A stretch of DNA of 64,000 nt from a bacterium (GTDB lineage Bacteria > CAIWAD01), in contig JAUXWS010000059.1 in assembly GCA_030685015.1 (NCBI GenBank), positions 87,052-151,051 on the forward strand, written 5' to 3'. Below the pieces are notes generated by a model. That model was given only the letters and a program-made list of their open reading frames with translations. It made no database searches and was not told the origin of the DNA. Each line of letters begins with the position of its first letter. Positions within the stretch are counted from its first letter, which is position 1. A program made the position numbers and the translations under genes. Shown here piece after piece: positions 18,017 through 60,513 of this stretch.

Positions 18017-18190
18017 TTCCATGAGTCCGTTCAGTGAACCCAAAAGCCTGCCGGGCTTGGACCTTCGACGGGATCACGCCCATGTCGAGGACCATACGGT
18101 GGGGGAATCGCGTCGCGTAACGGCACTTACTCGCAAGGAAACCGCGTCGAGAGGGGCCGACTGGCTCCCGGCCCCTGGTGGGAGATCATT

Positions 18191-21100: not shown

Positions 21101-21841
21101 CAGCCGGATCACATCATCGGCCTCAACACGCCCATCCCCGCGGCCCAGGGGCCGGCCGCCATGGTCGCCGTGTTCTGGACCGACCTCTACAACTACTACG
21201 GCGGCTCCCGCTTCGGCCGCTGCTACCGCCATCACGACGAAGCGGAGCACACCTTCACGATCCAGTGGAACAACTTCCACCACACGGGCCATCCCTACCA
21301 GGACAACTGGTTCCAAGCCGTGCTGCGGGATCCCGCCTGGTGGCCCACGCCCACCAGCGACGGCGAGATCCTGCTGCAGTATCAGGACATCGTCACCACC
21401 TTCGGCGAACACATCTTCACGGTGGGGGTGGAGCGCCCGGACGAGGCGGCCGGGCTGCAGTACACCTTCAACGGCCAGTACCCGCCCGCCGGGCAGCCCG
21501 TCACCAGCCAGACGGCCCTGCTCATCACCACCGCGGAGCGCTTCGAGGAGACAGCCCTGCCAGCCGGGGAGCGCCCCCGCGCCCTGGCCATGGCGCCGGC
21601 CGCCCCCAATCCCTTCAATCCGGAGACCATCATCCGGCTGGAGCTGCCCAGCGCCGCTCCACTCCAGCTCAGCGTCTACAACCTTCGGGGCGAGCTGGTG
21701 CGACGGCTCCACAACGGCCCGGTGGCGGCCGGGCACCGCCAGTTCCGCTTTCACGCCGGCGGCCTGGCGGGCGGCGTCTATCTGGTGGAGGCGCGACAAG
21801 GAGGACACCACGTCGTGCAACGTGTGCTCCTCTTGCCCTGA
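18191..21841 (+). CDS. peptidase C25 (gingipain-like cysteine protease) family protein with a C-terminal FlgD-Ig/T9SS type-A-like sorting domain
   Basis: Signal peptide MPCRLIPFFALLLVLVGTARVRA. Gingipain-like blocks YLLLIGDMNID, NYRGYGYRYSWNG, TSIVCGGGDF. C-terminus APAAPNPFNPETIIRLELP...LSVYNLRGELVRRL...GVYLVEA. Confidence 0.85.
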   Translation: MPCRLIPFFALLLVLVGTARVRAEGWQARAQDWHMKLVAEDDQGLTLSLQLEESLAKELADGRLRPEARGEDDPPLVLGRWIALPASAVADVEPVSQLWSRASPAGSLDCCDLSAPVQRLGQRMASLGIQPVADDGTVLLEMTLRIRFVGGEAAQPGAVPRAGSWLQLERAGRQVLNPGLTLRQLAGRTADLPLGRYLVVGKEASLTYMANWAAWRRQQGFEVALVSSESLGVTGNYWAPIRDAAQAMAADEGLDYLLLIGDMNIDQSGYHLPGDLVPGGQYAETNWGRRIVSDHTLALLEGDDYFADVLVGRFSADNATQVSIMASRALLYDQQPTVSGDAWLSKALMVYDVAGAASRRETSLSIRQHLMARGIAPVDTIRNNRYTNPQSPTLVTNAINDGRVVVNYRGYGYRYSWNGPLFGVSNINQLSNYGRWPLVTSIVCGGGDFASANYDPCLGEAFLRVGSTSEPKGAVAFIGPSEEDTHTRWNNTINMGIYQGLLEEGIRDVGALMDRGKAELWHCFPNHRTQIWHDPGSPSQTTNAPFYFYCYNLLGDPGTRLRLGSQRTVAQPAWTPPPAGSTQLELMVSDTEGQPGAELWVCLSGSDNRRLALARTDADGRAVLDFAPLAVEASHLVIHGDDWIPLDLEFTPAPAGSNLVLLNWSAAAEDSLLAAGDEFALALRLREAGVAGSPAGRRLSVEALDDGLTVLVDEMDLPALASGEILETEGMALRLAPSVEHGRELPMRLTLREAAGELLWERRLVAVAAGARPELLQLQTLPPTPVPGAVVELLLTFRNAGPLLLDANSCRLFPSSTACTMLDADAALDPLEPGAEGAASFRLLLASGVLPGARLNLELVCFRADHSMAARLPITLAVGEAGPTDPVGPDDHGYLIYHHGDSSPRAPVYDYHDITQLGTELPMNDEGAIFNDDGVDGVSRVLPLPFPFRFYGVDYDTITVCSNGWIAMGAQPDHIIGLNTPIPAAQGPAAMVAVFWTDLYNYYGGSRFGRCYRHHDEAEHTFTIQWNNFHHTGHPYQDNWFQAVLRDPAWWPTPTSDGEILLQYQDIVTTFGEHIFTVGVERPDEAAGLQYTFNGQYPPAGQPVTSQTALLITTAERFEETALPAGERPRALAMAPAAPNPFNPETIIRLELPSAAPLQLSVYNLRGELVRRLHNGPVAAGHRQFRFHAGGLAGGVYLVEARQGGHHVVQRVLLLP

Positions 21842-34522: not shown

Positions 34523-35005
34523 TCAGATCACCCTGTCCCGGCCCAGGAGACGGCTGGCCATTGACAGGCATCCAGTATGGTGCGCCTCGTGGTGGGACAG
34601 GTGCACCAACACTTCCGCCTTGGTGGCGAAGAAGCGGCTGGACTCCACCGGGGGGGACTTCAGCATGGCCGTCGTCGCCTTTTCCAGCCAGGCGGTCAGA
34701 TCCTGGCGGCGCTCCGCCAGGACGGCGCGGCATTCATCCGCGCCGGGCAGCTGATCGCATTCCGCGGGAGGGCAGCCCAGACCGAAGAGGGCGGGCCAGC
34801 GCTCGTCCCAGGTCCGCTGCCCGTTGAGCAGATAGAGAAAAAGGCCGCGATGGTAGGCCAGATGGCCCAGGGTCCACAGGGCGCAATTGGGCAGGTCCGG
34901 CGGCAGGGCCGTCCAGTCGTCGCCGGAAAGGCGGCTGGTGAAGGTATCGATGAACATGTCGCTACGCTCCAGGCCCAACCAGAACGCCTTGGCCATGGGA
35001 TCCAT
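34523..35005 (-). CDS. DinB/YfiT-like (DinB_2, DUF664) four-helix-bundle metal-binding protein
   Basis: His-rich motifs LGHLAYH and HLSHHEAHHTG are typical of the DinB_2 superfamily. Confidence 0.65.
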   Translation of the reverse strand: MDPMAKAFWLGLERSDMFIDTFTSRLSGDDWTALPPDLPNCALWTLGHLAYHRGLFLYLLNGQRTWDERWPALFGLGCPPAECDQLPGADECRAVLAERRQDLTAWLEKATTAMLKSPPVESSRFFATKAEVLVHLSHHEAHHTGCLSMASRLLGRDRVI

Positions 35006-41934: not shown

Positions 41935-43722
41935 TCACTTGACCAGCATGACCTTCATCGCGTCGCGGGGCAGGCCGTCCACCACCAGCCGCACGAGGTA
42001 GAGGCCGCTGGCCAGCTCGGCGCCGTCCAGGGTGCGGGCGTGGGTGCCCGCCGCCTGGCGGCCCGCCTCAAGACGCCGCAGCTCCTGCCCCAGGGTGTTG
42101 AAGACGGCCAGCGCCACCGCGCCTTCCCGCTCCAGGCGATATTCCACCGTGGTGGTCGGATTGAAGGGGTTGGGCGTGGCCTGCACCAGGCGGAAGTCCT
42201 GCGGGCCGGCCGCCGGCGCCGGCGTCACGCCGGTCCCCATGAAGTAGTCCATGACGTGCTCGAGGAACATGGGCATGTTCATGGAACCGGTGACCGAGGA
42301 ATGGATGCGCGTGGCCTCAACGGGGAAACCGCAGAATATGGCGGCGTAGGGCGTGCCGGTGGTGTAAACCGCCGCCGGGGCGTTGGCCACCTGCCGCCAG
42401 GTGCCGAAGACCACGCCGGGTGCCGTCACGTCCAGCACGTCGGGATCCTGGCTGTTGTTGGCGCCCTGCACGCCGGTGATGACGAAGGCGGTGCCGTCGA
42501 ACCAGGTGTCGCCCGCCACGCCATCGATCACGAAGACGGAGCCGGCATCGGTGTCGGTCACGGTCACGCCGAAGTAGTCGGCCAGGAAGTCGGCCCGGGC
42601 GGGATTGGTGGACATGAACTGGCTCGACAAGAGCAGCCGTCCTCCGCCGTCCAGGAAGGTGCGCAGACCAGCCTCCTCGGCGTCGGTGACGTCGTTCTGC
42701 TTGATGCCGCCCAGCCACAGGATGCGCTCATAGCGGCCCATTTCGTCGGCGGCCAGGGGATTGTTCAAGCCGGACCAGACGTCGTGGCCGATCCCGGCCA
42801 GATCCAGGGCGGAGGTGACGAAGCTCTCGTTGTCGTCCATGCCGCCGTCGCTATCCACCAGCAAGGTGGCCGGGCGGCCAATGCGCTGGGTGTGGGTCAG
42901 CGTGCCCGTGGCCGTGCCGCCGTTGTAGGGGGCCGAGTACGCGAAGCTAAAGGTGGCCCAGTGCGGCTCGATGCCGGCGGCGACGGTGTAGACGAAGGGG
43001 CCGCTCCCTTCCACGGTCTCGCCCGGTTGGGCGGCTGGGAAGGTGACGGTGTTCTGGGTGATGGTCACGGCCGGGTCGCTGCAGGTCATGACCACCGTGC
43101 AGCCGTTGGCGGGGACGGCGATGGGGCTGTTGCGCAAGCTCAGGTCGTAGTGGATGGTCTCGCCGCCGTCGGGCCGGCCGTCCCCGTTGTCGTCGGAGAC
43201 GATGGCCAGCGATTGCACGGTGAACACAGGATAAGCAACCGACATGTACTGGTTGATGATGTTGTGCATCGCGCCTTCACTGAACCCGCTAGCCGTGTAG
43301 CGGACGATACCGTCTGTGTCCAGAATGACGTTGTATGGTATGTAGTTGTTGCCGTATTGGCTGTAGATGCTGGCGCAGCCCGTCAACACCAGGAAGGTGG
43401 GGTTGTACTGGTCCCAATGGGCATGCAGGGCGGCCGCTGAGGCGTTGTCCGTGTCGATGTGGACCAGTTCGAAGGCGGCGGGATCGTAGACTTGCTCAAA
43501 GTTGGTTTGAAGCACCGGAAACTCGGTGTTGCAGGAGGGTCACCACGTGGCACCGAAGTTTATCACCACCACCTTGCCCCGCTGGGCGTAGAGGTTCCAG
43601 CTGCCACCGTTCCAGTCGTTGCAGGTGAAGTCCGTCGGCGTTTGGCCCACCATCCAGGCGGCCTCAGCCGACAGGGCCATGCCCAGGGTGACCACGCCCA
43701 GCGCGATCGCGTTCTTCATCAT
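41935..43722 (-). CDS. candidate selenoprotein: secreted TlpA-like thioredoxin-fold oxidoreductase (UxxC active site) fused to a large C-terminal region with a FlgD-Ig/T9SS type-A-like sorting domain. In-frame UGA at 43540..43542 is read as Sec.
   Basis: ORFs 43540..43854 and 41935..43515 are in the same frame, separated only by TGA. Start at the ATG at 43722 with a GGGAGG RBS and signal peptide MMKNAIALGVVTLGMALSAEA. Read-through gives KVVVINFGATW-U-PSCNTEFPVLQ, which aligns with TlpA/ResA WCxPCRxExPxL. C-terminus TPNPFNPTTTVEYRLE...GLYLVRL. Confidence 0.65.
43511..43530 (-). promoter_or_regulatory. SECIS-like hairpin AA-CACCG-AGUUUC-CGGUG-CU; the core stem starts 11 nt 3-prime of the UGA at 43540..43542 (9 nt to the extended AA/UU stem)
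   Basis: Seen directly on the minus-strand mRNA. The core stem begins 11 nt after the UGA (9-nt spacer to the flanking AA/CU extension), and the loop contains GU. Position and shape fit the bacterial SECIS model. Confidence 0.5.
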
Positions 43723-43793: not shown

Positions 43794-43822
43794 CCGGGAG
43801 CATGATCGCACCATGCTCCCGG
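43794..43822. other. perfect 11-bp inverted repeat CCGGGAGCATG-N7-CATGCTCCCGG between the two paralogs
   Basis: Seen directly. It lies ~50 nt downstream of the copy-2 stop (43871) and ~70 nt upstream of the copy-1 start. No U-tract follows, so it may be a terminator-like or processing hairpin. Confidence 0.4.
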
Positions 43823-43870: not shown

Positions 43871-45595
43871 TCAGCGCACGGCCCGCACCTGGAAGTAGAG
43901 CTGTTCCACGCCGGGCAGGAACAGAACCGCGGGGGGCTGCTCCGTCTCCATCACCGGCTGTCCTGGAAAAGTCCAGGGCTGGGCCGATTGGTACACGCGA
44001 TATCCGGTGGCGCCGGGCACGGGCGTCCAATGCAGCGTGGCCGCGCCGGCGGTCATGCCCAGCGACAGGTCCGTCACCGGGTCCGGGGGCGTGGCGGGAT
44101 GGGCCGCGTGCCAGGCGAAGGCGCGCTGCAGGAAGCCGGCCATGGTCACGGAGGCCGGCAGCGGTCCATAGAGACGCAAGGCCTCGAGGGGGAATCCGCA
44201 GAAAATGCTGTTGAATCCGCCGCCCGCCAGGTAGGCCGCGGCGGGACCCAACGTCCCCTGGCGCCAAGCGGCCATCTGCACCGCCGGCGGCGTCACCGCG
44301 ATGACATCGGGATGCACGTTGTTGTTGGCCGCCGCCGCCCCCGACAGGATGAGGTCCATGCCGCCGAACCAGGGGTCGTCGGCCGTGGTGGTGGCCCAGA
44401 AGATGTTGCCGCCGGTGAGCGCCGTCGTTTGCACGCCGAAGCGCTGGGCGAGGAAGGGGGCGTTCTGCGCGTTGCTGGAGGCGTACTGGCTGGAAAGCAC
44501 CAGCAGGCCGCCACGGTCCAGGAAGGCCTCCAGCACGGCCCGCTCCGCCGCGGTGATGTCCGGGTTGCGGATGCCGCCCAGCCAGATGATGCGCTGGTAT
44601 CTCAGCGCCTCCACCTCGCTCAGGGCGCCCTGCTGGTCCAGGGCCCACAGGTCGGCGGCCACGCCCAGGGCCGAGAGCGCGTTCAGGGCGTAGCTCTCGT
44701 TGTCGTCCATCTCGCCGTCGGCATCCACCAGCAGCAGGTCGGGACGGGCGATGCGCTGCTGGACCAACAGGTTCTGCTCCCAGGTGCCGCCCTCGAAGTT
44801 GGCCGACACGTGGATCTGGAAATCCGCCCAGTGCGGCTCCGCTTCGGACGACACGATGAAACTGAAGGCCGGCGTCTGCACGACCTGGCCCGGTGCCATG
44901 GCCGCCACCGTGGCTTGCGCCACCTGCGGTGACAGGGCGCTGGAGGTGGTCGACCAACTGATGTTGATGGACTGGGCGGCCATGCCGTTGGGACTGTTGC
45001 GCAAGGTGAGGGCGAAGCTCACCTGCTCGCCGGGATCTGGCCGGCCGTCGCCGTTGTCGTCGGACAGGATGTCCACCGACAGCAGGTTGAAGAAGGGGTT
45101 GGGCAGGCTGAGATACTGCTGGATGACGGCGTGGATGGCCGACTCGTTGAAGCCCGAGGCGGTGTAGCGGACGATGCCCTCCGTGTCCAGCACCACGTTG
45201 TAGGGGATGTAGTTGTTGCCGTATTGATTGTAGATGCTGGCGCAGCCCACGAGGACGGGAAAGGTGGGGTTGTATTGGTTCCAGTGGGCGTGCAGGGCGG
45301 CGGCGCTGGCGTTGTCCGTGTCGATGTGGACGACTTCGAAGGCGGCGGGATCGTAGGAGGCCTCGAAGTTGGATTGCAACACCGGAAACTCGGTGTTACA
45401 AGACGGTCACCACGTGGCGCCGAAGTTGAGGAGGACCACCTTGCCGCGCTGGCTGTAGAGATTCCAGCTTTGGCCGTTCCAATCCGTGCAGGTGAAATCG
45501 GTGGGCGTGCTGCCGATGGTCCAGACGGCGGCCGCGGGCGCGCAAAGGACCATCGACAGAAACAGCCCGGTCAACAAACGGGCGCGGTGCTTCAT
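43871..45595 (-). CDS. candidate selenoprotein, paralog 2: secreted TlpA-like thioredoxin-fold (UxxC) protein with the same middle region and an FN3-like C-terminus. In-frame UGA at 45407..45409.
   Basis: ORFs 45407..45595 and 43871..45382 are in the same frame, separated only by TGA. Signal peptide MKHRARLLTGLFLSMVLCAPAAA. Read-through gives KVVLLNFGATW-U-PSCNTEFPVLQ, identical in the active-site block to copy 1. RBS AGGGGGGA. Confidence 0.65.
45378..45397 (-). promoter_or_regulatory. SECIS-like hairpin AACACCG-AGUUUC-CGGUGUU (7-bp stem) beginning 9 nt 3-prime of the UGA at 45407..45409
   Basis: Seen directly. The hairpin-forming nucleotides are identical to copy 1, while flanking synonymous positions differ. 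Confidence 0.5.
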
Positions 45596-45768
45596 TAATC
45601 CCCCTGGTTCACAAGCGGAACAAACGTAAGGGCTGAGGTGGCTCGCTCCAAGAGAAAAGAGCCATCACGTCAATTATTCAGCGGGCGGGGATAGGCCTGA
45701 TGACACCCAGGCAGCTTGATGTCCCACCCCCCCGACACCTTGCCGGCGAATCACAAAGGAGGTGTCCC

Positions 45769-46128
45769 ATGATCAAGCAGAAAACCAACAAGCCGGTGAT
45801 GGTCAGCTTCCGCCGGAGCGTGGGCGAGCTTCGCCTGCTGGGGCTGGTGGCCTGGGGCGGGCTGTGCCTGGATCTGGCCGGGCTGCGCGGCCGGGACGTG
45901 GCGCTGCGCCTGGGGGCGCCCCGCATGTGGATGGAGACGATGCTGGAGGCCGTGGCGCAGGCGGGATCCCGCCAGCTGGTGCTGGTGGATTTGGATCTCA
46001 GCGTCTTCCTGGGCGATCCAAGCGAACTGGCCGGCCGTCTGGAAACTTGGGCGGCGCGGCAGGGCGTCCGCCTGACCCGCCTGTCCACCCAGGGCCTGTC
46101 CGCCGCCGGGTCCGCACGGGCGGCATGA
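45769..46128 (+). CDS. hypothetical protein (119 aa)
   Basis: Strong RBS AAAGGAGG 7 nt upstream of the ATG at 45769. It sits inside ORF 45700..46128. Confidence 0.5.
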   Translation: MIKQKTNKPVMVSFRRSVGELRLLGLVAWGGLCLDLAGLRGRDVALRLGAPRMWMETMLEAVAQAGSRQLVLVDLDLSVFLGDPSELAGRLETWAARQGVRLTRLSTQGLSAAGSARAA

Positions 46129-49215: not shown

Positions 49216-50408
49216 TCAGGCCGTGCGCGTCACGGTCAGCCGCACCTGGCCGTGGTTGTTCTTGTAGAAGTTCCAGGCCTCGTTGGCGTGGCAGCAAAGG
49301 TAGCCGGCGCGGGACGGCGTGCGGCTGTGGGCCGTGCCGATGCGGAAGGTCTCCAGGGGAGCAGGCGTGCCGTCCGGCCCCGGATCGCCGCCGTTGGCGA
49401 TGGCGCCCATGAGGGCCATCCAGGGCTCCTGCTCGGCCCGCCGCGTGCCCCAGAAATCCGCCTCCTCGTTGCCGGTCACCTTCTTCACCAGTTGTTCGAA
49501 GCGACCCCAGACCCCCGCGGCGACGTGAATCAATTCACCCTTGTCGAAGCGGCCATCCTTGGTGCCCCCTGGGGCCGCAGACCAGGTCGCGGTCCATCCA
49601 CTGGCCCTCGGCACTGGACTCGCAAGTGGCGCCCGCCTACAGCCAGAGGCCAGTGATGTTCCAACGGTCGGCGGGCGTAAATGGCCAGCTGGCAGGATTC
49701 ACCCACGGCGAGCTGTTGCGTCCGCCGGCAGGGCGCTTGGAGGATGGGCGGATCCTCCAGGCGCTTGAGGGCGGTGGAATGGATGTGATCGTCGCCGCTC
49801 GTCAGTTTTGGCGTGTGGCGGGGCTGGGTGCGCAGCAGCTTGAAGACGCCGGAGCAAGAGTCGTGCAGGACGTCCTGGTGGTTGGGGCGGACCTGGCGCA
49901 GCATGCCCGGCTTGAAGGCCTAACCCTGGGCCTGGGCCTCCTCGATCATCCACTGCAGAGCGCCGTTGGAGAGGCCGGTCTCGGCGTAGCCGCCCCCCAC
50001 GTCGCAGTGCACGCCGCGCTTCCAGCGGTCGACGTCGGACAAGCCGGTCAGATCGGGCAGGCCGCAGGCCGACATCAGTCCGGCCAGACTGCGCACCGTG
50101 CAGGCGCCGCGGCTGAAGCCGATAAGGAAGAGGCGGCCGCCGTCCTGCACGTTGCGGCAGAGCCAGTGCCAGGCGCTGAGGATGTTCTTGCTCAGCCCTT
50201 CGCCCACGCTGCCGCCCTTGGCCTTCTCCCACCATCTGTCTTCGGTGCCCGCGCCGGGATGGTGTTAGGCCAACTGGTGCCTGCCCTGGGCGTCTGTCTC
50301 GGCCAGCGCGTTGTGGAGACGCACCACGTTGGCGGGGACAGGAGTGCCGCTCTCGTCCTGGTCGGGTGTGCTCCAGGTGCCGTCGCAGCAGATAACCAGC
50401 CGCCGCAT
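49216..50408 (-). pseudogene. disrupted DUF2235 (T6SS Tle1-lipase-like alpha/beta hydrolase) gene. In-frame TAA at 50265..50267 and TAG at 49920..49922, plus a frameshift in 49530..49614.
   Basis: N-terminal fragment MRRLVICCDGTWSTPD...NVVRL carries the DUF2235 CDGTW and NVxRL blocks. The next same-frame fragment has GFSRGA (GxSxG) and GVHCDVGGGY. Four consecutive ORF-track pieces lie on one strand. Confidence 0.5.
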
Positions 50409-50541: not shown

Positions 50542-52572
50542 TCATGGGCGCCGACGGTCCGGGTTGTGGAAGTAGTTGAAGCGCCAGAGCGCCTCGTCGC
50601 CATGGCAAGTGGCGCACAGGGTCTCGCTGCTCTCGGCCGTGAGGAATTGCACTCGTCCATGCTCACGACCTTCGCGCCAGGGCTGATGTGGATTGTGACA
50701 GGTGCGGCAATCCACATGCAGGTAGCGTCGCTCTTCCGGAACGATGGAGGGCAGCGGCCCCTTTTCCCAGGCGGGGTGGAACCAGGCCTTGGGCACGCGC
50801 TGTCCGACTCCGGAGTCGTGGTGGCAGGCCAAGCAGCCGATGGCGCCGGTTGTCCAATTGTCGGGCTGCCGTTCCCGGCTTCCTTCGGCCCAGTCCGATT
50901 CGGGCATGAGATGACCCAGGTTCGATCCGGCCACGGCGGAGCTGAGCAGGGCCGGCGTGGCCGCCTGGTGCGGACTGTGGCAGGCTGCGCAGGGATTGGG
51001 CGATTCGCCGGGCATTCCGCGCCGGTCGTGCATGCTGCCCAGGATGGAGCCCTGGTTGGTATGGCAGTCCATGCACAAGGCGCCGTCATGATTGCCCGCG
51101 CGAAGGAAACTGGAGGCATCGTCGCCGTTCATGCCCCGTGCCCATGCAGCCCCGACGGGACTCCACTGGTGTGGGTCGTGGCAGGTTTCGCAGCCGATGC
51201 GCTCATCCGCAAGGCGTGGCAGCCAGGAAGGCCGGAGGGCTCCGATTCCCCTTCCCACCGGATGGCTGAATTCACCCACGGAGCTGAGCCCCGGAGTGTT
51301 GGCTGCGGCATCCTCGTGACAGCGAAGGCACAGGCGCGTGGCCGGGCTTAGCAGGCCGGCCTCGGCGGGACCATCGGGACTGGTGGCCAGCACGTCGCGG
51401 CCGTGGGCATCGTGACAACTGCTGCAGCGCCACACCGACTGACCCGAGAGGGAGATGAAAAGCGGTTCGTCGGCGCCATGGTCGGAGGCCAGAATGGAAG
51501 CTTGGCCTGGGTGGCAACTCAGGCAAAGGCCATCTTCAGCCTGGTCCATGCGCCGCAGGAAACTGGTTCCCGGCGTGCCGGGCTGGCCTGCGTCGGTCTC
51601 GCCTCCGACGGACCACCGATGCGGATCGTGGCAGGTGATGCAAGCCACGTGGCCTTGTCGCAGGGGCAAGTCGCCACTTCCCTCCGGCACCGCGCCCAAG
51701 GGATGGCCCCAGGCATGCGCGGCGTCCTCGCTGTGGGATTGCGGCGCCGCGTGACAGCGTTGGCAAAGGGCGTTGCCGCGAGAGTCGGGCGAGGCGTTGG
51801 CGTGGGGCGCATGACAGGTCGAGCAGGCGTCGTGCTCCCCGGGCTTCCCACTGGACAGGCTGTGACGGGTGGACAGGACCTCCTGTTGCGGCTCATGGCA
51901 TGCGGCACACAGCCTGCCACGATCCTTGCCCTCCGTGTTCCGCGTGGGATGCGCGCTGTGCATCTTGTGGCAACTGAGGCATTCCACCCGGTCCCGCGGG
52001 GTGAAGGAATTGGTCAGCGAAGCGCCTCGACCATCCTTGAGCTGTGCGTGGATCGGGTGATTCCCGGCATTGCCCGCGTGGTCCGCATGACAGTTGAGGC
52101 AAAGCTCCGAGGCGAGAATGCCGTCTCGGATGAAGGGCGACAGCTCGTACTTGCGCCCCATTTTGTGCGTGTGCGGCGTGTGGCAGGTGCCGCAATAGAC
52201 GTCGCCATTCAGGTCGAGCGGAAGACTGCCCGTGGAAAAACCCTTGGGGAGTTTCCGCAAATGGATGTCGCCGGGGCGAAACGCAGTGCGGCTGTCCTTC
52301 ACGTAGCCATCGTGGCAGGACCAGCACATTTCTTCCGAGCTGTTGCGCGCCGGCTCGCCGTCCAGGATCACCGGGTTCTTCAGGGGAGGCAGGAAGGGCT
52401 CCAGGCGGTCAAAATCGTCGCCCCAGTTGATATGGCAGATGATGCACTGACGGAGGTGCTCGGCGCGCGATACCACGGCAAGGCTGTTGGATGAAGCACA
52501 CAGCAATGCCAGCAGGAGGACGCGAAAGGTCAGGTTCTGGCTTGGGATCACAAGGGGCCGGATCTTGGCCAT
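50542..52572 (-). CDS. multiheme c-type cytochrome with 18 CxxCH motifs, secreted
   Basis: Signal peptide MAKIRPLVIPSQNLTFRVLLLALLCASS. I counted 18 CxxCH motifs in the translation. Confidence 0.85.
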   Translation of the reverse strand: MAKIRPLVIPSQNLTFRVLLLALLCASSNSLAVVSRAEHLRQCIICHINWGDDFDRLEPFLPPLKNPVILDGEPARNSSEEMCWSCHDGYVKDSRTAFRPGDIHLRKLPKGFSTGSLPLDLNGDVYCGTCHTPHTHKMGRKYELSPFIRDGILASELCLNCHADHAGNAGNHPIHAQLKDGRGASLTNSFTPRDRVECLSCHKMHSAHPTRNTEGKDRGRLCAACHEPQQEVLSTRHSLSSGKPGEHDACSTCHAPHANASPDSRGNALCQRCHAAPQSHSEDAAHAWGHPLGAVPEGSGDLPLRQGHVACITCHDPHRWSVGGETDAGQPGTPGTSFLRRMDQAEDGLCLSCHPGQASILASDHGADEPLFISLSGQSVWRCSSCHDAHGRDVLATSPDGPAEAGLLSPATRLCLRCHEDAAANTPGLSSVGEFSHPVGRGIGALRPSWLPRLADERIGCETCHDPHQWSPVGAAWARGMNGDDASSFLRAGNHDGALCMDCHTNQGSILGSMHDRRGMPGESPNPCAACHSPHQAATPALLSSAVAGSNLGHLMPESDWAEGSRERQPDNWTTGAIGCLACHHDSGVGQRVPKAWFHPAWEKGPLPSIVPEERRYLHVDCRTCHNPHQPWREGREHGRVQFLTAESSETLCATCHGDEALWRFNYFHNPDRRRP

Positions 52573-52798
52573 GGAGGCCTCCGCGGGGATGAAGAGAATG
52601 TGCTTCCGTCAGAACAGGAGTCGGTGGCCAACGGCCGCAGGGGGCGATAGCCTCAATTGTGAAACTGTTGCCAAGTTAATCCCCGTCGTGGGCAATTCAA
52701 GTGCAAGCCAGCGGGTTTCCAACTTGACATGGCAGCTTTCGTCACAGACCTTGAATCGACGAAAGCCGTTGGCAAGTTGAGTTCATGCTGGCCTTGGG

Positions 52799-53542
52799 AT
52801 GTGTATGAAGATCCGGATCCTGTTCCTGTTTTTGTTGACGGCGGCGGTTGCCGCGGGCGCCGCCGGTGCCGGGCGGCCCTCTCCCAAGGGCGCATGCCTG
52901 GTCTGTCACAAGTTGAAGACGCCAAATTTGTACGCGGACTGGCACTCCTCCGCCCATGCCAAGAACGGAGTGACCTGCCTGGACTGCCATGAGGCGCGGG
53001 CCAGCGAACCGGATTCCTATGCCCATGGTGGAGCCACCATTTCACTTTTCGTGACCCCGAAGGATTGCGCCGGATGCCATGAGGTGGAGACAAGCCAGTA
53101 CGCGCGCTCCGGACACGCCGGCGCCGCTGTGGATCTGGAGAGCATCGACCCCGGGCTGCGCGCCAATTACGGCGAGCCCGGGTCCTGCAGCAAGTGCCAT
53201 GGTGGTCACGCCCGTCGCGATCCCGACCGGCCCATCGGCCAGCCCGTGGTGCCCCGTCCGGAACACGGCGTGGGTCGCCTGAACCAGGACGGATCGCTGG
53301 GGGCCTGCACGCCTTGTCATGCCGAACACCGCTTTGCCAGGGACGTGGCGCGCAAAGACTCAACTTGCACGGCCTGCCACGGGGAGGAACACCGTCCCCG
53401 GCATGAAGGCGCCATTCTTGCCGCCGGCGGACGGCGCGCGGGCGTGCCCCCCCTGGACAGTCAAGTGGCGTGCGCCAGTTGCCACATGTCCGTGGGGCGG
53501 GGGCGGCCAGTGTCGCATCTCATCCAGCGCAAGGGACAGTGA
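52799..53542 (+). CDS. multiheme c-type cytochrome with 7 CxxCH motifs, secreted
   Basis: Signal peptide MKIRILFLFLLTAAVAAGAAGA. Motifs CLVCH, CLDCH, CAGCH, CSKCH, CTPCH, CTACH and CASCH. Confidence 0.8.
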   Translation: MCMKIRILFLFLLTAAVAAGAAGAGRPSPKGACLVCHKLKTPNLYADWHSSAHAKNGVTCLDCHEARASEPDSYAHGGATISLFVTPKDCAGCHEVETSQYARSGHAGAAVDLESIDPGLRANYGEPGSCSKCHGGHARRDPDRPIGQPVVPRPEHGVGRLNQDGSLGACTPCHAEHRFARDVARKDSTCTACHGEEHRPRHEGAILAAGGRRAGVPPLDSQVACASCHMSVGRGRPVSHLIQRKGQ

Positions 53543-53605
53543 CCGCTGTGCTTCCGCACGTCCAGTTAGAGTGCCTCAGCCCATTCCAGTAGTCTCGGAG
53601 CCGAC

Positions 53606-55204
53606 ATGAACCTGGCGTACTTCAGAAACATCTGGCTGGCGGTGTTGCGCAGTCTGGCCATCAACAACATCAGTCGCGCCGGCGTGGCCATCACGACCTC
53701 GGCATTCGTCTCCTTCTTCTTCTTTGAGATCAGCATGCTGACCGGGGTCCTTCACAACCCCTACGTGGGCATGATCACCTACCTGGGCATTCCCATGCTG
53801 TTCATCCTGGGCCTGATGTTGATCCCGATCAGCTGGGTGTGGGAGGCACGACGCCGGAAATGCAGCATCAAGGCCCTGTTGTGGGAGAGGTTCGATCGAC
53901 GCATGCTGGAGCGTCGTGCGCGCGGCGCATTGGCCTTGCGTGTGCTGGTCATCATGAGCTTCGTCAATGTGGGCTTCATCAGCGTGGTGGGATTCCAGGC
54001 GGCCAAGCACATGGACGAATCTGAATTCTGCGGCACCACGTGCCACACGGTGATGGGTCCGGAATGGGCCGTGTATCAGGGGTCTCCGCACGCCCGTGTG
54101 CAATGCGTGCATTGTCACATCGGCGAAGGCGTGGGTGCCCTGGTGGACGCCAAGCTCAACGGCGCGTGGCAGATGATCGCCCTGTCCCTGGGCATCTATG
54201 AACGGCCGATTCCCACTCCGGTCCACAACTTGCGCCCGGCCCGCTTCACCTGCGAGAAGTGTCATTGGCCCGCGCTTTTCCACGGCAACCAATTCAAGAA
54301 CATCGTTCACTACGAAGAGGACGAAAGCTCCACGCCGCGCCACACGACCCTGATGATGAAGACCGGGTCGGGCGAGCCGGGGCATGAGCACGGCAGTCAT
54401 TGGCACGTGTCCCCCAGCAATCAAGTGCATTACGCGTCCCTGGATGACAAGGGCGAAACCATGGTCTGGGTTGACATGCGGTTGCCCGACGGAGGGGTGC
54501 GTCGCTACCACAACAAGTCCTTGTCGAAGGCGGACGCCGAGCGTGCTGGACTAACACACACGATGGACTGCGTGGATTGCCACAACCGGGCCACGCATGT
54601 CTTCGAGCTGCCTGCGGTTGCCGTGGATCAGCGGATTCGCCTGGGACTCATCAGCCGGGATCTGCCCTACATCAAGCGTCAGGCGCTGGCCGCTCTTGTG
54701 CAGGCGTACCCTGATCGCGACGCCGCGATGACGGGGATTGACGCAAGCATTCGCGGATTCTATCATCAGGAATACCCCGAACTTGCCATGGCCCGCGCCA
54801 CCGCCCTGGACTCCGCGGTCACGACGGTGCAGGCCATCCACCGGCGCAACATTCATCCGGACATGAAGGTGGTCTGGGGGAGCTACCCCAACCACCTGGG
54901 TCACGGCAGCACCTCAGGGGGCTGTTTTCGGTGTCACAATCAAGACATGGTGGATGATTCGGGAGCCGGCATCCCGGACGACTGCGTGCTCTGTCATTCG
55001 ATCCTCTCCAACGACGAGCCGGAGCCTTATCTCTATCTGTTCCGGCCGGACGAGTACGCGCCGCGGGAAACACAGGAGATGCAGCGATTCCTGCGGACGG
55101 AATTCTGGGAATACACACGGGATGCAGTGGAAAAGGGCGCCCGCCCGAATCAGTCACCACCGGACTGGTTCAACAAGGCGGCGGGCCGCGAATCCGGGGA
55201 TTGA
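53606..55204 (+). CDS. membrane-anchored multiheme cytochrome c with two N-terminal TM helices, 5 CxxCH and 1 CxxxCH; NapC/NirT or ImcH-like architecture
   Basis: TM helices VAITTSAFVSFFFF and ITYLGIPMLFILGLMLIPI. Heme motifs CGTTCH (CX3CH), CVHCH, CEKCH, CVDCH, CFRCH and CVLCH. Confidence 0.8.
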   Translation: MNLAYFRNIWLAVLRSLAINNISRAGVAITTSAFVSFFFFEISMLTGVLHNPYVGMITYLGIPMLFILGLMLIPISWVWEARRRKCSIKALLWERFDRRMLERRARGALALRVLVIMSFVNVGFISVVGFQAAKHMDESEFCGTTCHTVMGPEWAVYQGSPHARVQCVHCHIGEGVGALVDAKLNGAWQMIALSLGIYERPIPTPVHNLRPARFTCEKCHWPALFHGNQFKNIVHYEEDESSTPRHTTLMMKTGSGEPGHEHGSHWHVSPSNQVHYASLDDKGETMVWVDMRLPDGGVRRYHNKSLSKADAERAGLTHTMDCVDCHNRATHVFELPAVAVDQRIRLGLISRDLPYIKRQALAALVQAYPDRDAAMTGIDASIRGFYHQEYPELAMARATALDSAVTTVQAIHRRNIHPDMKVVWGSYPNHLGHGSTSGGCFRCHNQDMVDDSGAGIPDDCVLCHSILSNDEPEPYLYLFRPDEYAPRETQEMQRFLRTEFWEYTRDAVEKGARPNQSPPDWFNKAAGRESGD

Positions 55205-55497
55205 GCGTCGGTGAAGGTCACCTTGGAACCCCGATGCATCGCCGCGGGCCGGGTCGATCGAATCGGGCGCATTCACAGTCCAGTTGGGCGGCACAGGTAG
55301 CGCCTCAGATATACATTAGGCGTAAAACAAAACCGGTCATTTTTTCAAACCAAATGTTAGGTTCTTGACGGGCTGGCGATGCGGGTCATTCCACGCTCCG
55401 TTCCGTGTTCCAGCCGAACGTTGCGCATTCCTGATCGATCGAACTTCCAGGGCGGCCGGCCATGGCTGCTTGCGCCCGAAGCCCCAGGAGCCCGCGC

Positions 55498-56259
55498 ATG
55501 AAGTCCTGCACCAGACGTTGCGTCCTTGCTGCCCCATTGGCGCTGCTTGTGTTTGTGGTGGCCATGCCCGCCATATCCGCAACCGACACCTGCCTGGATT
55601 GCCACGCGTCTCCAGATTTGAAGGTGCGCGCCCCCGGTCTGCAAGCCTGCTACCAAGCCTGGCGCAATTCTCCTCATGCCAAGGCCGGCGTAGGGTGCGC
55701 GGACTGCCACGGCGGCGGCGATGCGGCCACCCGGGACCAGTGCCCTTCCACGTCGGAACGGAATGTCAACGACTTCCGCCGGATACCCGAGACCTGCGGC
55801 CAGTGCCATCAGGTTCTTCTGATGACCTTTCGCGAGAGCGTGCACTTCACCCAGCTTCAGGAGGCTGAAGCGGGGAAGGAAGGGCCCAATTGCGTGACCT
55901 GTCACGGCTCCATGGGAGCATCTCGAGTGGAAACCGCCCAAGTGGAGGCTTTGTGCGCCACCTGTCATGACGGTGTTCGTGCGTCCGACGATGGAATTCC
56001 CGCACGAGCGCGATCCGTTCTTGAGGTTCTATTGGGCGTGCGGCAGTTCAGCGCATGGCTGGGACTTCATACCCAGGACCCCGAACTGGAGGTGAACGAG
56101 CGAAGCAAGCAGATCGCTCATTGGCATAGATTCGAACTGGCCGCCCTTGAAATGCAAAGCGCAAAACAACTGGAGGAATTGAAAGCCCGAGTGAATGATG
56201 TTCGGGTCAAGGAAGGCCAGCTTCGACGTGAAAAGCGAAAACTGGGGCAGAAGGAATAG
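55498..56259 (+). CDS. multiheme c-type cytochrome with 5 CxxCH motifs and a C-terminal coiled-coil
   Basis: ORF 55462..56259, with start at the ATG for MKSCTRRCVLAAPLALLVFVVAMPAISA. Motifs CLDCH, CADCH, CGQCH, CVTCH and CATCH. Confidence 0.75.
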   Translation: MKSCTRRCVLAAPLALLVFVVAMPAISATDTCLDCHASPDLKVRAPGLQACYQAWRNSPHAKAGVGCADCHGGGDAATRDQCPSTSERNVNDFRRIPETCGQCHQVLLMTFRESVHFTQLQEAEAGKEGPNCVTCHGSMGASRVETAQVEALCATCHDGVRASDDGIPARARSVLEVLLGVRQFSAWLGLHTQDPELEVNERSKQIAHWHRFELAALEMQSAKQLEELKARVNDVRVKEGQLRREKRKLGQKE

Positions 56260-56465
56260 AACGGGAAGCGGTTAAGCAGTAGACGGCGTTTGCGATGTGG
56301 AGAGAAGTTGATAAACGAAGTTAATTGTCGCCTTAAGGCTACTACAGATAACAGCATCAGATCGAGATCATAGATATAAACCGGTACTCAAACATGTGTT
56401 GGCTGAAGGTAGCCTACGAGTCCTTATGCAATTTCTAAGCAATCCGATGAAGAAAGGAGACAACC

Positions 56466-57404
56466 GTGGAGAAGGAAGAACGTGTTCATGACAGGCATGA
56501 CCCTCGACATGGCAGCAGGACCCAGGGGGAACATGTGTCGTTGGGCGGAACCCTGCGCGCCGTTGTCTTCATCCTGCCCGTGGCGGTGCTTGCCCTGATC
56601 CTGTTGTCCATGTCATCCCGCGGGGCCATGACGCTGACCTCGGCGATCATGGTGTTGGCAATCCTGATGATAATCCTTGGCATCGTTGTATCGGGCATCC
56701 GCGTTGCAGCCCAATGGGAGCGCGGAGTCGTCCTGCGCCTAGGCAATTTCCGCTCGGTCAAGGGCCCCGGACCACTCTACATTGTTCCAATCTTCGAGAG
56801 TGTCCGCTTCATCGATACCCGCCTGCTGGTCTTGAACATTCCTCGGCAGAAGGTCATCACCAAGGACAATGTGCCGGCGGAGATCGATGGCGCGCTCTTC
56901 TTCATGGTTTCGGACAGCCAGAAGGCGGTGATCACAATCCAGGACTTCCGTTTTGCCGTAGCGCAGTATGCCCAGGCTGCACTTAGGGACATCGTCGGCG
57001 GATTGACCTTGGACGAACTGCTCTCGGAACGGGAGCAAATCCAGGCCCACATCAAGGAGCATGTGGAGCAGCGGGTCAAGGATTGGGGACTGAGCGTGGA
57101 TTCCATCCAGCTCCAGGACATCGAGCTGCCGGAGGATCTGAAGCGAATGATGTCCAGGCAGGCGTCCGCTGAAAGGGAGAAGCGCGCCACCATCACCAAG
57201 GCCGAGGGCGACATGCTGGCGGCGACGAATCTGGCGGAGGCAGCCAGGATCATGTCGGCCAGCCCCATCACCCTGCAACTTCGGACCCTGCAGATGATCG
57301 ACGGCCTGGGTGCCAGCCAGTCCAACACGGTCATTTTGTTTCCCGCGCAGATGGGGGAGCTGCTTGAAAGCCTTGCCGCCGGTCGTGCCAGGGCCAACGA
57401 ATAG
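56466..57404 (+). CDS. SPFH/band-7 (stomatin-prohibitin-like, slipin) membrane protein
   Basis: GTG start preceded by an AAAGGAG RBS. TM helix VVFILPVAVLALILL, followed by an SPFH domain and a coiled-coil. Confidence 0.85.
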   Translation: MEKEERVHDRHDPRHGSRTQGEHVSLGGTLRAVVFILPVAVLALILLSMSSRGAMTLTSAIMVLAILMIILGIVVSGIRVAAQWERGVVLRLGNFRSVKGPGPLYIVPIFESVRFIDTRLLVLNIPRQKVITKDNVPAEIDGALFFMVSDSQKAVITIQDFRFAVAQYAQAALRDIVGGLTLDELLSEREQIQAHIKEHVEQRVKDWGLSVDSIQLQDIELPEDLKRMMSRQASAEREKRATITKAEGDMLAATNLAEAARIMSASPITLQLRTLQMIDGLGASQSNTVILFPAQMGELLESLAAGRARANE

Positions 57405-57501
57405 GGGAAGTGCCCATGGTTGAAACATCCTCCAAGGGTGCGCCACAAGGGCGGTGGCCGGCCTTCCGTTCGCGCTGCAATCATGGCCTGAATCGGGCGC
57501 G

Positions 57502-58335
57502 GATATGATCCGGATTTCATTGCTGGTCATGTTGGCGGCCTGTCTGCATGGCAGGGTCGGACATGGTGTCGAGACTCCCGCCCACAATGACAGGGTCAAG
57601 TTGCTCTGGGAGTTCCATGGCTACTATCCCTGCATGGACTGCCATTTCAACCAGGAGACCAACCGGAGGCCCCGGGTGCTTGAAATGGAGCACGAGAAGC
57701 CTCTGGATTGGATGGACGACGACGGCGTGATTCACCGCGTGGAATTCGGCGAGCGCCTGCCTTTGGCGGAACTTCTTGGGAAGGGGCAGGCTCGTGGCCT
57801 GCGCCGGGAGACACTGGAGCGCATCGGACGGCGCATGAATCTGCGCGACCACATGTCCGCCCAAGGCCTTGGCGTAACGGACTCGATCTGGGTGCTGACG
57901 CATGGTGGTGGCAATGTGTGGTGCCTGGATTGCCACTCAGCCAGCGAACGGGACATGCTGGTGCTGCATGATGGCAGCCTGTTGAGTTTCAATGAAAGCC
58001 AGAGGCTGTGCGGGCAATGTCACGGGCCCACACTGATTGACTGGGATGCGGGAGCCCACGGCCGCACCAATGGCTACTGGAATCTGGAGTTGGACTCCAC
58101 GGGCATCAGCAGGCGCTTGTTGTGCGTGGAGTGCCACAACCCTCACGCGCCAGCCTTCCGCGGCATGATGCCTCTTGCCGGACCCGTCAACCGACTTGAC
58201 AACATTTCTCAACCCGCCCCTGGCACGCACAGAAAAGAAACCATCAAAGGGACGCGGGATGATATGGGGCCGCAGCCATGGCAGACTTCGCCGCGAAACG
58301 GGACGAGCGATCGCTCCAGGGAGGGCAACCCGTGA
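57502..58335 (+). CDS. tetraheme c-type cytochrome (4 CxxCH), periplasmic partner of the downstream NrfC/NrfD-like module
   Basis: ORF 57454..58335, with start at the ATG for MIRISLLVMLAACLHG. Motifs CMDCH, CLDCH, CGQCH and CVECH. Confidence 0.7.
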   Translation, partial: DMIRISLLVMLAACLHGRVGHGVETPAHNDRVKLLWEFHGYYPCMDCHFNQETNRRPRVLEMEHEKPLDWMDDDGVIHRVEFGERLPLAELLGKGQARGLRRETLERIGRRMNLRDHMSAQGLGVTDSIWVLTHGGGNVWCLDCHSASERDMLVLHDGSLLSFNESQRLCGQCHGPTLIDWDAGAHGRTNGYWNLELDSTGISRRLLCVECHNPHAPAFRGMMPLAGPVNRLDNISQPAPGTHRKETIKGTRDDMGPQPWQTSPRNGTSDRSREGNP

Positions 58336-59273
58336 AGCCCAGCAAAAAGAACATGATGCGGGGCCGCGCGGACTCCGTGGACCGGCGCGGATTCCTCAAG
58401 GCCATGGCATCCACGGTCGCCGCCCTGAGCCTGCCCGTGTTGAGCAAGGACGCCGGGGCCTTCTCCTGGGATGAGTTTTTCCAGAAGCATTTCTATGAGC
58501 TAAGTCGGGAAGAACTGGAAAAGCGGATCAAGCGCCTCGAAAAGGAATACAACGAGAAGTTCCACAGGACGGACTTCAGCGTGAGCACCGATGGCCCGCT
58601 CAAGGATGTGCGCTTTGCCTACGCGCTAAGCCTGTCCAAGTGCATCGGTTGCAGGAAGTGCGTACACGCCTGCGTGGCGGAGAACAATCAGCACCGGGGT
58701 AGCGAATCGCGCCGGGACGTGGTGGAGTACATCCGCGTTCTGGAAATGGAGAAAGGTTCGCTGGACCTGGAGAAAGCCGTCCACGACTACAGCCACCCGG
58801 TTCCCGCGGAAGGCAAGTACTACATGCCCGTGCAGTGCCATCACTGCAACAACGCGCCCTGCACGAAAGTCTGTCCCGTGGAAGCCACTTGGCAGGAAGT
58901 GGACGGCATCGTTGTCGTCGACTACGAATGGTGCATCGGATGCCGTTACTGCCAGGCGGCCTGCCCCTACTTCGCCCGGCGCTTCAACTTCAGCGAGCCC
59001 AGGCTTCCGGAGGCGGAAGTCAATCCCGTGACCCATTACCTGGGCAATCGCCCGCGGAGCAAGGGGGTCATGGAAAAATGCACCTTTTGCATCCAGCGCA
59101 CACGCAGGGGATTGAATCCCGCCTGCCTGGACGTCTGCCCCACAGGCAGCCGGAAGTTCGGCAACCTGCTCGACCCAGATAGCGAAATCCGCTACATCAT
59201 CAATAACAAGCGGGTGTTCATCCTCAAGGAAGAACTGGGCACGATGTCCAGCTTCTACTATTACTTCGATTGA
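58332..59273 (+). CDS. Tat-exported 4Fe-4S ferredoxin-type iron-sulfur subunit (NrfC/PsrB/HybA family)
   Basis: GTG at 58332 overlaps the cytochrome stop (GTGA). The ATG at 58353 is an alternative. Twin-arginine motif RRGFLKAMAS. Four Cys clusters: CIGCRKCVHAC, CHHCNNAPC, CIGCRYCQAAC and CTFC...C. Confidence 0.8.
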   Translation: MKPSKKNMMRGRADSVDRRGFLKAMASTVAALSLPVLSKDAGAFSWDEFFQKHFYELSREELEKRIKRLEKEYNEKFHRTDFSVSTDGPLKDVRFAYALSLSKCIGCRKCVHACVAENNQHRGSESRRDVVEYIRVLEMEKGSLDLEKAVHDYSHPVPAEGKYYMPVQCHHCNNAPCTKVCPVEATWQEVDGIVVVDYEWCIGCRYCQAACPYFARRFNFSEPRLPEAEVNPVTHYLGNRPRSKGVMEKCTFCIQRTRRGLNPACLDVCPTGSRKFGNLLDPDSEIRYIINNKRVFILKEELGTMSSFYYYFD

Positions 59274-59280
59274 AGAGGGC

Positions 59281-60513
59281 GTGGTGGTCCATATCAGTCT
59301 TTACCCTCGCTTCGTCATTGATGCCATGCGTTCGATGATGGGGGATTCGGGGCTTTACCGACTTTGGTTGGTTTCCTTGTCGTGCCTGATTGGAGCAGGA
59401 GGATGGGCCTACGCCCAGCAGCTCGAATCCGGTCTGGCCGTGACGGGGATGAGCGATCAAGTTTCCTGGGGCGTCTACATCGCCAATTTCACCTTTCTCG
59501 TGGGCGTCGCCGCGGCGGCCGTCATGATGGTGATCCCGGGCTACCTGTATCACATCAAGGAAGTCAAGGACGGCGTCCTGATCGGTGAAATGGTTGCCAT
59601 TGGCGCCATCATCATGTGCCTGCTCTTCGTGGTGGTTGACCTCGGCCGCCCGGACCGGATCTGGCACATGATTCCCGGAATCGGCCGCTTCAATTTCCCC
59701 ATGTCACTGCTAAGCTGGGATGTGGTAGTCCTGAACGGTTACCTGTTGTTGAATCTGCACATCCCTGGATACATCCTCTATCAAAGGTGGTTGGGAAAGG
59801 AGCCGAGAAGGGGATACTACATGCCCTTCGTTTACATGAGCGTGGTCTGGGCAGTCAGCATCCACACCGTCACGGCGTTCCTGTACAATGGATTGGGTGG
59901 GCGACCTTTCTGGAACACGGCCATCCTTGCCCCTCGCTTCATCGCCAGTGCCTTCACGGCTGGCCCGGCCTTCATCATCCTCGTGCTTTATCTGGTAAGG
60001 CGGTACACGGACTTTCATGTGGATGGCCGGCTCTTCCGCTTCCTGCGCATGGTGGTGTTGATCTGCGGCCTGATCAACCTGTTCCTCCTGGGCAGCGAGG
60101 TGTTCACCGAGTTCTACACAGACTCCACACATGTGGCAAGCGCCCGCTACCTCTACTTTGGCCTGCATGGACACACGGCCCTTGTTCCCTGGATCTGGGC
60201 TTCCGTCGGCATGAACGTGCTGGCCATCCTGATGCTGCTGTCGCGACGCTTCGAGTTCAGCACCACGGCACTGAAAGCCCTGCCCTTGGTACTGCTGATT
60301 GTGGCCATCTGGATTGAGAAGGGCATGGGCTTGATCATCCCCGGTTTCATCCCGACTCCCCTTGGGGAGATCTTCGAGTACATGCCATCCGCGACGGAGA
60401 CGTTGATCTGCCTGGGAGTCTGGGCGGTGGGCTTGCTGGTCATGACCCTGCTGATCAAGTTCGCCACGGACGTGGAGACGGGCCGGATCAGCGCTCCCAG
60501 AACGGAGTTCTGA
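59281..60513 (+). CDS. NrfD/PsrC-family integral membrane quinol-interacting subunit
   Basis: 410 aa with ~8-10 TM helices. The sequence pattern matches polysulfide-reductase NrfD-like membrane anchors. It lies immediately downstream of the Fe-S subunit. Confidence 0.8.
   Translation: MVVHISLYPRFVIDAMRSMMGDSGLYRLWLVSLSCLIGAGGWAYAQQLESGLAVTGMSDQVSWGVYIANFTFLVGVAAAAVMMVIPGYLYHIKEVKDGVLIGEMVAIGAIIMCLLFVVVDLGRPDRIWHMIPGIGRFNFPMSLLSWDVVVLNGYLLLNLHIPGYILYQRWLGKEPRRGYYMPFVYMSVVWAVSIHTVTAFLYNGLGGRPFWNTAILAPRFIASAFTAGPAFIILVLYLVRRYTDFHVDGRLFRFLRMVVLICGLINLFLLGSEVFTEFYTDSTHVASARYLYFGLHGHTALVPWIWASVGMNVLAILMLLSRRFEFSTTALKALPLVLLIVAIWIEKGMGLIIPGFIPTPLGEIFEYMPSATETLICLGVWAVGLLVMTLLIKFATDVETGRISAPRTEF

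Follow-up and report, generated by a model that had tools for sequence, protein, structure and literature searches.

Why should two adjacent genes each carry an in-frame UGA at the position of a catalytic cysteine? The question is posed by a 64,000-nt stretch of bacterial DNA (contig JAUXWS010000059.1, positions 87,052 to 151,051; hereafter the window, to which all coordinates refer unless a locus is named). In it two redoxin-like genes lie in tandem on the minus strand, copy 2 at 43871..45595 and its paralog, copy 1, at 41935..43722. The UGA could specify selenocysteine (Sec), be read as a standard amino acid, divide two genes, or reflect decay or error. Several lines of evidence indicate that in copy 2 it is almost certainly a programmed Sec codon, located in the active site of a ResA/TlpA-like, exported thiol-disulfide oxidoreductase.

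One reading frame across the UGA

The complete read-through gene of copy 2 has 574 codons, Sec63 included. Its frame opens with an ATG at 45595, closes with a terminal TGA at 43873..43871, and is interrupted solely by the TGA at 45409..45407, which is codon 63 and stands in the context KVVLLNFGATW-UGA-PSCNTEFPVLQSNFE. A purine-rich, putative Shine-Dalgarno element (AGGGGGA, 45599..45605, minus strand) can be read from the sequence 3 nt upstream of the ATG. The first-pass annotation had placed the open reading frames (ORFs) 45407..45595 and 43871..45382 in one frame with only the TGA at 45407..45409 between them, and both its coordinates and its peptides are borne out. The Sec-UGA of copy 1 lies at 43542..43540 in the context KVVVINFGATW-UGA-PSCNTEFPVLQTNFE. 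A 19-residue core, NFGATW-U-PSCNTEFPVLQ, is identical in the two copies and matches fully the earlier claim of a shared active-site block.

Outside this core the paralogs are more diverged than had been supposed. Pairwise alignment of the read-through translations gives 50.5% identity (278/551) rather than the roughly 65% first proposed; the redoxin domains share 81%, the two next domains 40-44%, the tails 24% and the signal peptides 41%. The first-pass annotation had noted that signal peptides and C-termini differ, and the C-termini do so in kind: that of copy 1 is a type IX secretion system (T9SS) sorting domain, that of copy 2 an Fn3-like domain. The G+C content at third codon positions (GC3) of copy 2 is 0.90 before the internal TGA and 0.84 after it. 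A scan of all window TGAs for coding signal in both flanks (GC3 >= 0.8) returns just the two paralog sites and a gene junction at 27003. Two same-frame TGA junctions, that at 27003 (MurI/phosphatase) and another at 34523 (DinB/RlmN), were set aside as ordinary gene boundaries. The paired in-frame TGAs of the two copies far exceed chance expectation.

The spacer between the paralogs is 148 nt long, from the copy 2 stop to the copy 1 start. It contains a perfect 9-bp inverted repeat, GGGAGCATG-(7 nt)-CATGCTCCC (43795-43820, minus strand), which is followed by no T-run, is not called by a terminator scan, and may be an intergenic hairpin or regulatory site. Promoter and terminator scans show nothing relevant near the two genes.

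Translation past the UGA would complete a thioredoxin fold

The UGA falls within a TlpA/ResA-like redoxin domain of thioredoxin fold (residues 25-165; 45101..45523, minus strand), as delimited by Pfam and by alignment with ResA. Three Pfam models score above their cut-offs: AhpC-TSA with 53.2 bits (cut-off 26), Redoxin with 49.6 (26.6) and Thioredoxin_8 with 41.4 (27). The head aligns end to end with Bacillus subtilis ResA (PDB 3c71 and 1st9; E 5e-15 to 6e-14) over residues 4-133 of the domain, and the UGA stands opposite the first active-site Cys (WCEPC/WCPHC). The Sec-UGA (45407..45409, minus strand) thus occupies the first position of a U-P-S-C redox motif, aligned to the first Cys of CxxC. 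Ahead of the domain is a predicted Sec-type (secretory) signal peptide, MKHRARLLTGLFLSMVLCAPAAA (45527..45595, minus strand), recognized by inspection from its charged n-region, hydrophobic core and AxA site, with cleavage likely after AAA.

Public annotation divides the locus differently, into a 62-residue secreted peptide and a separate 503-residue protein starting at GTG 45382, and the gene callers of several databases annotate it so, the GTG lying 24 nt past the UGA. Such a division would sever the thioredoxin fold at its active site. AlphaFold2 (AF2) models of the annotated 503-residue ORF and of a full-length Cys homologue (P0040) show what is lost: the first 90 residues of the former form an amputated thioredoxin fold with a predicted local distance difference test score (pLDDT) of 52-69, compared with 92 for the complete fold of the latter, in which helix α1 (residues 61-75) starts at WCGPC. 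In the P0040 model, a helix also spans the N-terminal residues 2-16 and leads into a linker of low confidence. Because the 503-residue head models poorly and P0040 models fully, a complete thioredoxin domain results only when translation passes the UGA.

Other features of the short product are equally hard to reconcile with two genes. It has no signal peptide, yet every relative with the same C-terminal carrier (see below) is exported and has a signal peptide ahead of the head domain. The 24 nt between UGA and GTG encode the conserved PSCNTEFP, including the resolving Cys. Moreover, the putative start is not conserved: the GTG, which encodes the Val of 'PVLQ', is replaced by ATT in L001_12478, ATC in L008, CAT in L005_1137 and L009, and CAG in L011. 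A split gene is therefore judged highly improbable.

Conservation of the UGA and selection on both sides

Six full-length homologues of 568-597 residues (P0014, P0015, P0016, P0021, P0040 and P0044) have WCGPC at the UGA position. About 40 further database homologues are 484-529 residues long and start a few residues past the UGA; they are shortened by gene callers just as copy 2 is. In database records all ~40 of these subfamily relatives lack the N-terminus, are named 'hypothetical' or 'T9SS sorting domain' proteins and lie beside orphan ORFs of about 60 residues.

The window and 13 further contigs with orthologous loci, taken from genome and metagenome collections, contain 23 distinct gene copies with TGA at this codon. 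Their active sites read U-PS-C, U-PG-C, U-GG-C, U-SG-C or U-PA-C, and the copies include those of a complete Candidatus Delongbacteria chromosome (L008, OY760505.1; 'YPT-U-PGC', with the TGA at L008 position 2974) and of a KSB1 genome assembly (L011). An independent metagenome contig encodes the identical 503-residue product behind the same 62-residue upstream ORF. Gene order is conserved as well: a copy-2-type gene, a copy-1-type gene and sometimes a Cys-type gene are followed by genes for an RNA recognition motif (RRM) protein, PNPOx, a major facilitator superfamily (MFS) transporter, an M48 peptidase, DinB and RlmN. The third tandem paralog, present in some genomes right after the two Sec genes (at L001:14278-16053 and around position 4467 of L053), is a full-length Cys form of 591-597 residues with WCGPC and a T9SS tail; the window has the two Sec copies only.

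The ratio of nonsynonymous to synonymous substitution rates (dN/dS), which the first-pass annotation had proposed to compare on the two sides of the UGA, indicates purifying selection both upstream and just downstream. For the paralog pair it takes the value 0.16 over the mature region before the UGA and 0.21 over the remainder of the redoxin domain; between copy 2 and its orthologs it is 0.07-0.14 upstream and 0.13-0.33 downstream. For the far C-terminal carrier domains the estimate is 0.3-0.9, a range that is unreliable at this divergence and with GC3 near 0.9. The frame after the UGA stays open for 510-512 codons in every copy 2 ortholog and for 510-534 codons in every copy examined. Since the frame is open in every ortholog and the carrier domains are modelled with pLDDT around 90, these domains appear to be fast-evolving and not decaying.

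The same data bear on the idea that both copies are pseudogenes created by nonsense mutation, or that the TGA is an assembly or sequencing error. A single base change does turn TGC or TGT into TGA. Set against this are the recurrence of the TGA in all 23 copies and on the independent contig, values of dN/dS well below 1 on both sides, and the long open frame downstream. This explanation is effectively refuted by the conservation data, and its probability is negligible.

A hairpin behind the UGA resembles a bacterial SECIS element

A published model of the bacterial selenocysteine insertion sequence (SECIS; bSECIS for the bacterial form) describes a hairpin whose apical loop has 3-9 nt and whose upper stem has 4-16 bp. 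The loop lies 16-37 nt from the UGA, its first or second position is G, usually with G or U next, and the minimum free energy is -7.5 kcal/mol or lower (PMC13188914). Copy 2 has a bSECIS-like hairpin at 45374..45401 (minus strand), spanning 8 to 36 nt past the UGA, with an 11-bp stem and a 6-nt apical loop, AGUUUC (45390..45385), that starts 16 nt after the UGA. Counting from the UGA, 40 nt fold with an energy of -16.0 kcal/mol and 60 nt with -19.7 kcal/mol (z = -2.8). The hairpin agrees with the bSECIS model in all five respects, the spacing being exactly 16 nt and loop positions 2-3 being G-U. A SECIS check had been suggested along with the original observation, and the outcome for copy 2 is a hairpin at the correct distance that fits the model. 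When the window is searched with a covariance model of UGA plus hairpin, the two paralog sites are the only matches.

Several features of the nucleotide sequence support selection at the level of RNA. Phe in the loop is encoded by TTT in the two paralogs, and only one of the 23 copies departs from this codon (the KSB1 copy L011 has TTG, Leu), although TTT is rare in window genes, at 9% of Phe codons. An 18-nt block, AACACCGAGTTTCCGGTG, is identical between the paralogs, even though the domain as a whole shows a proportion of synonymous differences of ~0.5 and third positions differ in each of the three codons directly before the block. Furthermore, four orthologs (L005_1137, L008, L009 and L011) have other stem nucleotides and other amino acids (NAEFPH, RTEFPI, NTEFPH and TVELPQ, respectively), and the hairpin still forms; its apical bases are G-U-U, its pairing is shifted by one base, and L005_1137 and L008 have a one-base bulge. 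A weaker form, like that of copy 1, is present in several orthologs. No such hairpin is found in the two Cys paralogs for which DNA is available (GPCN[DE]EMP).

Evidence for and against selenocysteine

Several results weigh against insertion of Sec. No SelA, SelB or SelD domain is present among the ~30 window ORFs scanned with Pfam, and ARAGORN detects no tRNA of any kind, tRNA-Sec included, in the 64-kb window and no tRNA-Sec in 13 fetched loci. Because 64 kb is a small part of a genome, the absence of Sec machinery from the window says little. The hairpin of copy 1 is borderline, with a 5-bp perfect core (43528..43513, minus strand) and an energy of -7.2 kcal/mol against the threshold of -7.5, its loop and spacing being those of copy 2. 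Rfam at gathering thresholds gives no match in the window.

The statistical tests of the hairpin are also unsupportive. Covariation counted in a fixed register over 21 sequences is not significant (82.7% of cells paired, 82.0% in shuffles), and RNAalifold on 21 hairpin sequences yields no consensus structure. Both are blind to the divergent stems because those pair in a register shifted by one; the covariance model likewise left the shifted stems unrealigned, and no covariation evidence was gained from it. With synonymous codons randomized, copy 2 has p = 0.09 and copy 1 p = 0.70, values that fall short of significance because the peptide NTEFPV itself largely encodes the stem.

If selenium were not involved, the UGA would have to be read through with a standard amino acid such as Trp, Cys, Arg or Gly, either by hairpin-stimulated near-cognate suppression or by lineage-specific reassignment. 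Downstream hairpins can stimulate read-through in general, and the failure to find Sec machinery in the window or the fetched loci speaks in favor of this explanation. Reassignment, however, is contradicted by the use of TGA as the stop codon of 24 of 31 recognizable window genes (30 from the window ORF table plus MsrB), both paralogs among them; UGA is therefore not reassigned genome-wide, and the standard code applies. Suppression fares little better. The UGA lies exactly on the catalytic CxxC Cys, where only Cys or Sec would keep function, and the hairpin geometry and G-U of the loop match the SelB-dependent bSECIS model. Leaky read-through would be expected to give mostly truncated product, yet the gene is under strong purifying selection. 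Read-through with a standard amino acid is accordingly considered highly improbable.

Taken together, copy 2 is very probably a genuine selenoprotein gene whose UGA is read as Sec. The first-pass annotation had reasoned that a TGA preserved at the same catalytic position in both copies argues for a functional Sec codon; selection, the hairpin, the Cys homologues and the conservation of the UGA all support that argument.

A proposed route from codon to enzyme

A plausible sequence of events can be outlined in four steps. In the first, the hairpin would act as a bacterial SECIS that recruits SelB and Sec-tRNA(Sec), and UGA codon 63 would be recoded to Sec. In the second, the 574-residue precursor would be exported across the inner membrane by means of its N-terminal signal peptide. 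The third concerns the ResA/TlpA-like head, in which U-P-S-C is placed at the N-terminus of helix α1 and Sec would replace the exposed, nucleophilic first Cys of CxxC. The Sec is expected to attack substrate disulfides or oxidized thiols and to form a selenenylsulfide with the resolving Cys66 before recycling. The homology of the head to ResA is clear, and an electron donor for the recycling is presumed. In the fourth step, the head would work in the cell envelope or at the cell surface on a carrier of ~420 residues, composed of a β-sandwich, a GATase1-like domain and an Fn3-like tail. Such a location is suggested by related candidate phyla, in which this carrier is attached to secreted peptidase heads and is usually accompanied by a T9SS sorting signal, as it is in copy 1.

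Relation to known selenoproteins and oxidoreductases

High-confidence predictions of prokaryotic selenoprotein families already include UxxC thioredoxin-fold oxidoreductases (Table 1 of PMC13188914). Selenoproteins of the UxxC TlpA/redoxin-like type are a known kind, to which the copy 2 gene adds a new member. As far as published descriptions allow the comparison, copy 2 shares with the known proteins the thioredoxin-fold redoxin domain, the same Pfam models, Sec as the first residue of UxxC, the existence of Cys homologues and a hairpin directly after the UGA. Unlike them, it has its redoxin as the first ~165 residues of a 574-residue exported multidomain protein. Its motif is W-U-P-S-C, with WCGPC in the Cys paralogs, and its genes form tandem Sec/Sec(/Cys) arrays in Delongbacteria-like genomes.

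Among Cys enzymes, the head resembles B. subtilis ResA and the extracytoplasmic thiol-disulfide reductases TlpA/CcmG/DsbE, as seen by comparing NFWGTWC-xx-CKKEFP of ResA with NFGATWU-PS-CNTEFP of copy 2. An N-terminal signal for export or anchoring is common to ResA and copy 2, and the LPTTF Pro of ResA aligns with that of IPYNV. Copy 2 differs from ResA in having Sec for Cys and a large C-terminal carrier, which ResA lacks. No cytochrome c maturation genes are found in the window. Two closer assignments were tried and rejected. The ResA ortholog model (NCBIfam NF002854) scores 69.2 bits against a cut-off of 170, so the protein is not ResA proper. The model for a 'ResA-like WAxxUGC motif-containing protein' (NF041054), a selenoprotein family curated in NCBIfam, which likewise describes a ResA-like domain in a longer protein with Sec in the redox motif, scores 39.6 bits against a cut-off of 300, and the motif of copy 2 is GATW-U-PSC, not WAxxUGC.

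The hairpin can be compared with the SECIS elements of Escherichia coli fdhF and fdnG. Common features are placement inside the coding sequence just 3' of the UGA, a small apical loop containing G-U, and a spacing of 16 nt. The sequences show no resemblance, however, and the majority form at this locus lacks a bulged U, a one-base bulge occurring in the two orthologs named above; its SelB-type role is putative.

Several elements appear to be undescribed in the searched literature: the multidomain carrier, its link to T9SS cargo, the tandem Sec/Sec/Cys arrays and the uniform database misannotation. A literature search on Delongbacteria and selenocysteine found no papers. Recoding itself is ordinary biology. 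The architecture is of modest added interest: a secretion carrier also used with peptidases bears a Sec head, and the genes form Sec/Sec/Cys arrays, in a candidate phylum that has received little study. What matters in practice is annotation, given that the redox head and the signal peptide are lost from the stored records.

The carrier module and type IX secretion

Behind the redoxin head of copy 2 are three further domains on the minus strand. The first is a β-sandwich (residues ~169-282; 44750..45091) with an invariant DDNGDGRPDPGE motif; it is modelled by AF2 with pLDDT around 90 and has immunoglobulin-like β-sandwich matches in Foldseek and none in Pfam. The second (residues ~287-501; 44093..44737) is a GATase1/ThuA/GIFT-like α/β domain, class I glutamine-amidotransferase-like in fold, for which enzymatic membership of that class would require a catalytic Cys-His-Glu triad. 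The third is an Fn3-like C-terminal β-domain (residues ~511-574; 43874..44065), assigned from AF2 secondary structure and matched by neither Pfam nor NCBIfam. Foldseek searches of the PDB return mainly generic β-sandwich matches with low TM-scores, and Pfam searches of the C-terminal segments return only DUF4159 (E 0.03).

The two copies differ in their sorting signals. The C-terminus of copy 1 scores 27.0 bits with TIGR04183, the T9SS type A sorting domain (cut-off 23), and scans of copy 2 with Pfam and NCBIfam detect no Por_Secre_tail or TIGR04183 domain. To judge from these termini, copy 2 may stay in the periplasm or envelope and copy 1 may be displayed or secreted.

The module of β-sandwich and GATase1-like domain recurs in genomes of KSB1, LCP-89, WOR-3, TA06, Gemmatimonadota, Eisenbacteria and Krumholzibacteriia. 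There it trails putative subtilisin-, papain-, M14- and M1-like peptidase heads, recognized by their sequence motifs (whole ORFs in L018, L019, L022, L024, L027, L029, L030, L032, L055 and L057). The α/β domain bears the signature 'LLVDDDGG...WxTG...LSGQ' and follows the DDNGDGRPDPGE β-sandwich. Most of these proteins have a T9SS-type sorting tail after the carrier; the Gemmatimonadota examples L024 and L029 end differently. From its sequence associations, the carrier looks like a generic scaffold for secreted cargo.

It is possible, if somewhat doubtful, that the genes define a family of extracytoplasmic selenoproteins, potentially exposed at the cell surface or secreted by T9SS, in which a Sec redoxin head is mounted on the carrier that candidate phyla of the Fibrobacterota-Chlorobiota-Bacteroidota (FCB) group employ for secreted peptidases. 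If so, selenium redox chemistry would take place outside the cell, out of reach of the electron supply provided by DsbD/CcdA at the inner membrane. Confirmation of a location external to the outer membrane would raise the question of how the enzyme is recycled. In a full-text literature search, no paper treats selenoproteins and type IX secretion together, the only co-mention being an unrelated study of rabbit nutrition.

A second, different thioredoxin-like UxxC head with an in-frame TGA is joined to the same carrier and a T9SS signal in L012, L013 and L015, at 2431-2433 in each. Its contexts are 'EYFGNTN-U-SYCPAA', 'EVFTASW-U-VYCPDA' and 'EYLGNTG-U-PYCPDA', and each TGA has a signal peptide ahead and a hairpin of -14 to -19 kcal/mol behind. 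This head probably represents another misannotated selenoprotein family.

Also within the window, a 1267-residue protein (18038-21838, plus strand) contains a gingipain-like Peptidase_C25 domain, a typical type of T9SS cargo, and is consistent with a host that has a T9SS.

Neighboring genes

Just upstream of copy 2, a divergent gene (45700-46128, plus strand) encodes a small conserved protein ('...PVMVSFRRSVGELRLLGLVAWGGLCLD...') with no Pfam match. A homologue occupies the same position in the complete Delongbacteria chromosome (L008:2021-2569, minus strand), and an unannotated 119-residue ORF, likened to it by position only, lies in the same place at L065:3189-3548. About 3 kb from the selenoprotein pair is a gene for methionine sulfoxide reductase B (MsrB; SelR/PF01641; 48629-49297, minus strand), a Cys form with a long N-terminal extension that is syntenic on an independent contig.

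Farther along, a 114-residue ORF (49923-50264, minus strand) matches positions 47-122 of the 287-position catalytic domain of Tle1-like phospholipases of the type VI secretion system (T6SS) and ends with TAG. The next ORF in its frame (49533-49919, minus strand) has no family match, and the Tle1-like ORF looks like a gene fragment or pseudogene. The region 50545-60510 encodes multihaem cytochromes c with MtrC/MtrF-like domains, NapC/NirT-like proteins and paired CXXCH motifs, together with a 4Fe-4S dicluster protein and an NrfD-like membrane subunit, a combination that suggests an extracytoplasmic electron-transfer module.

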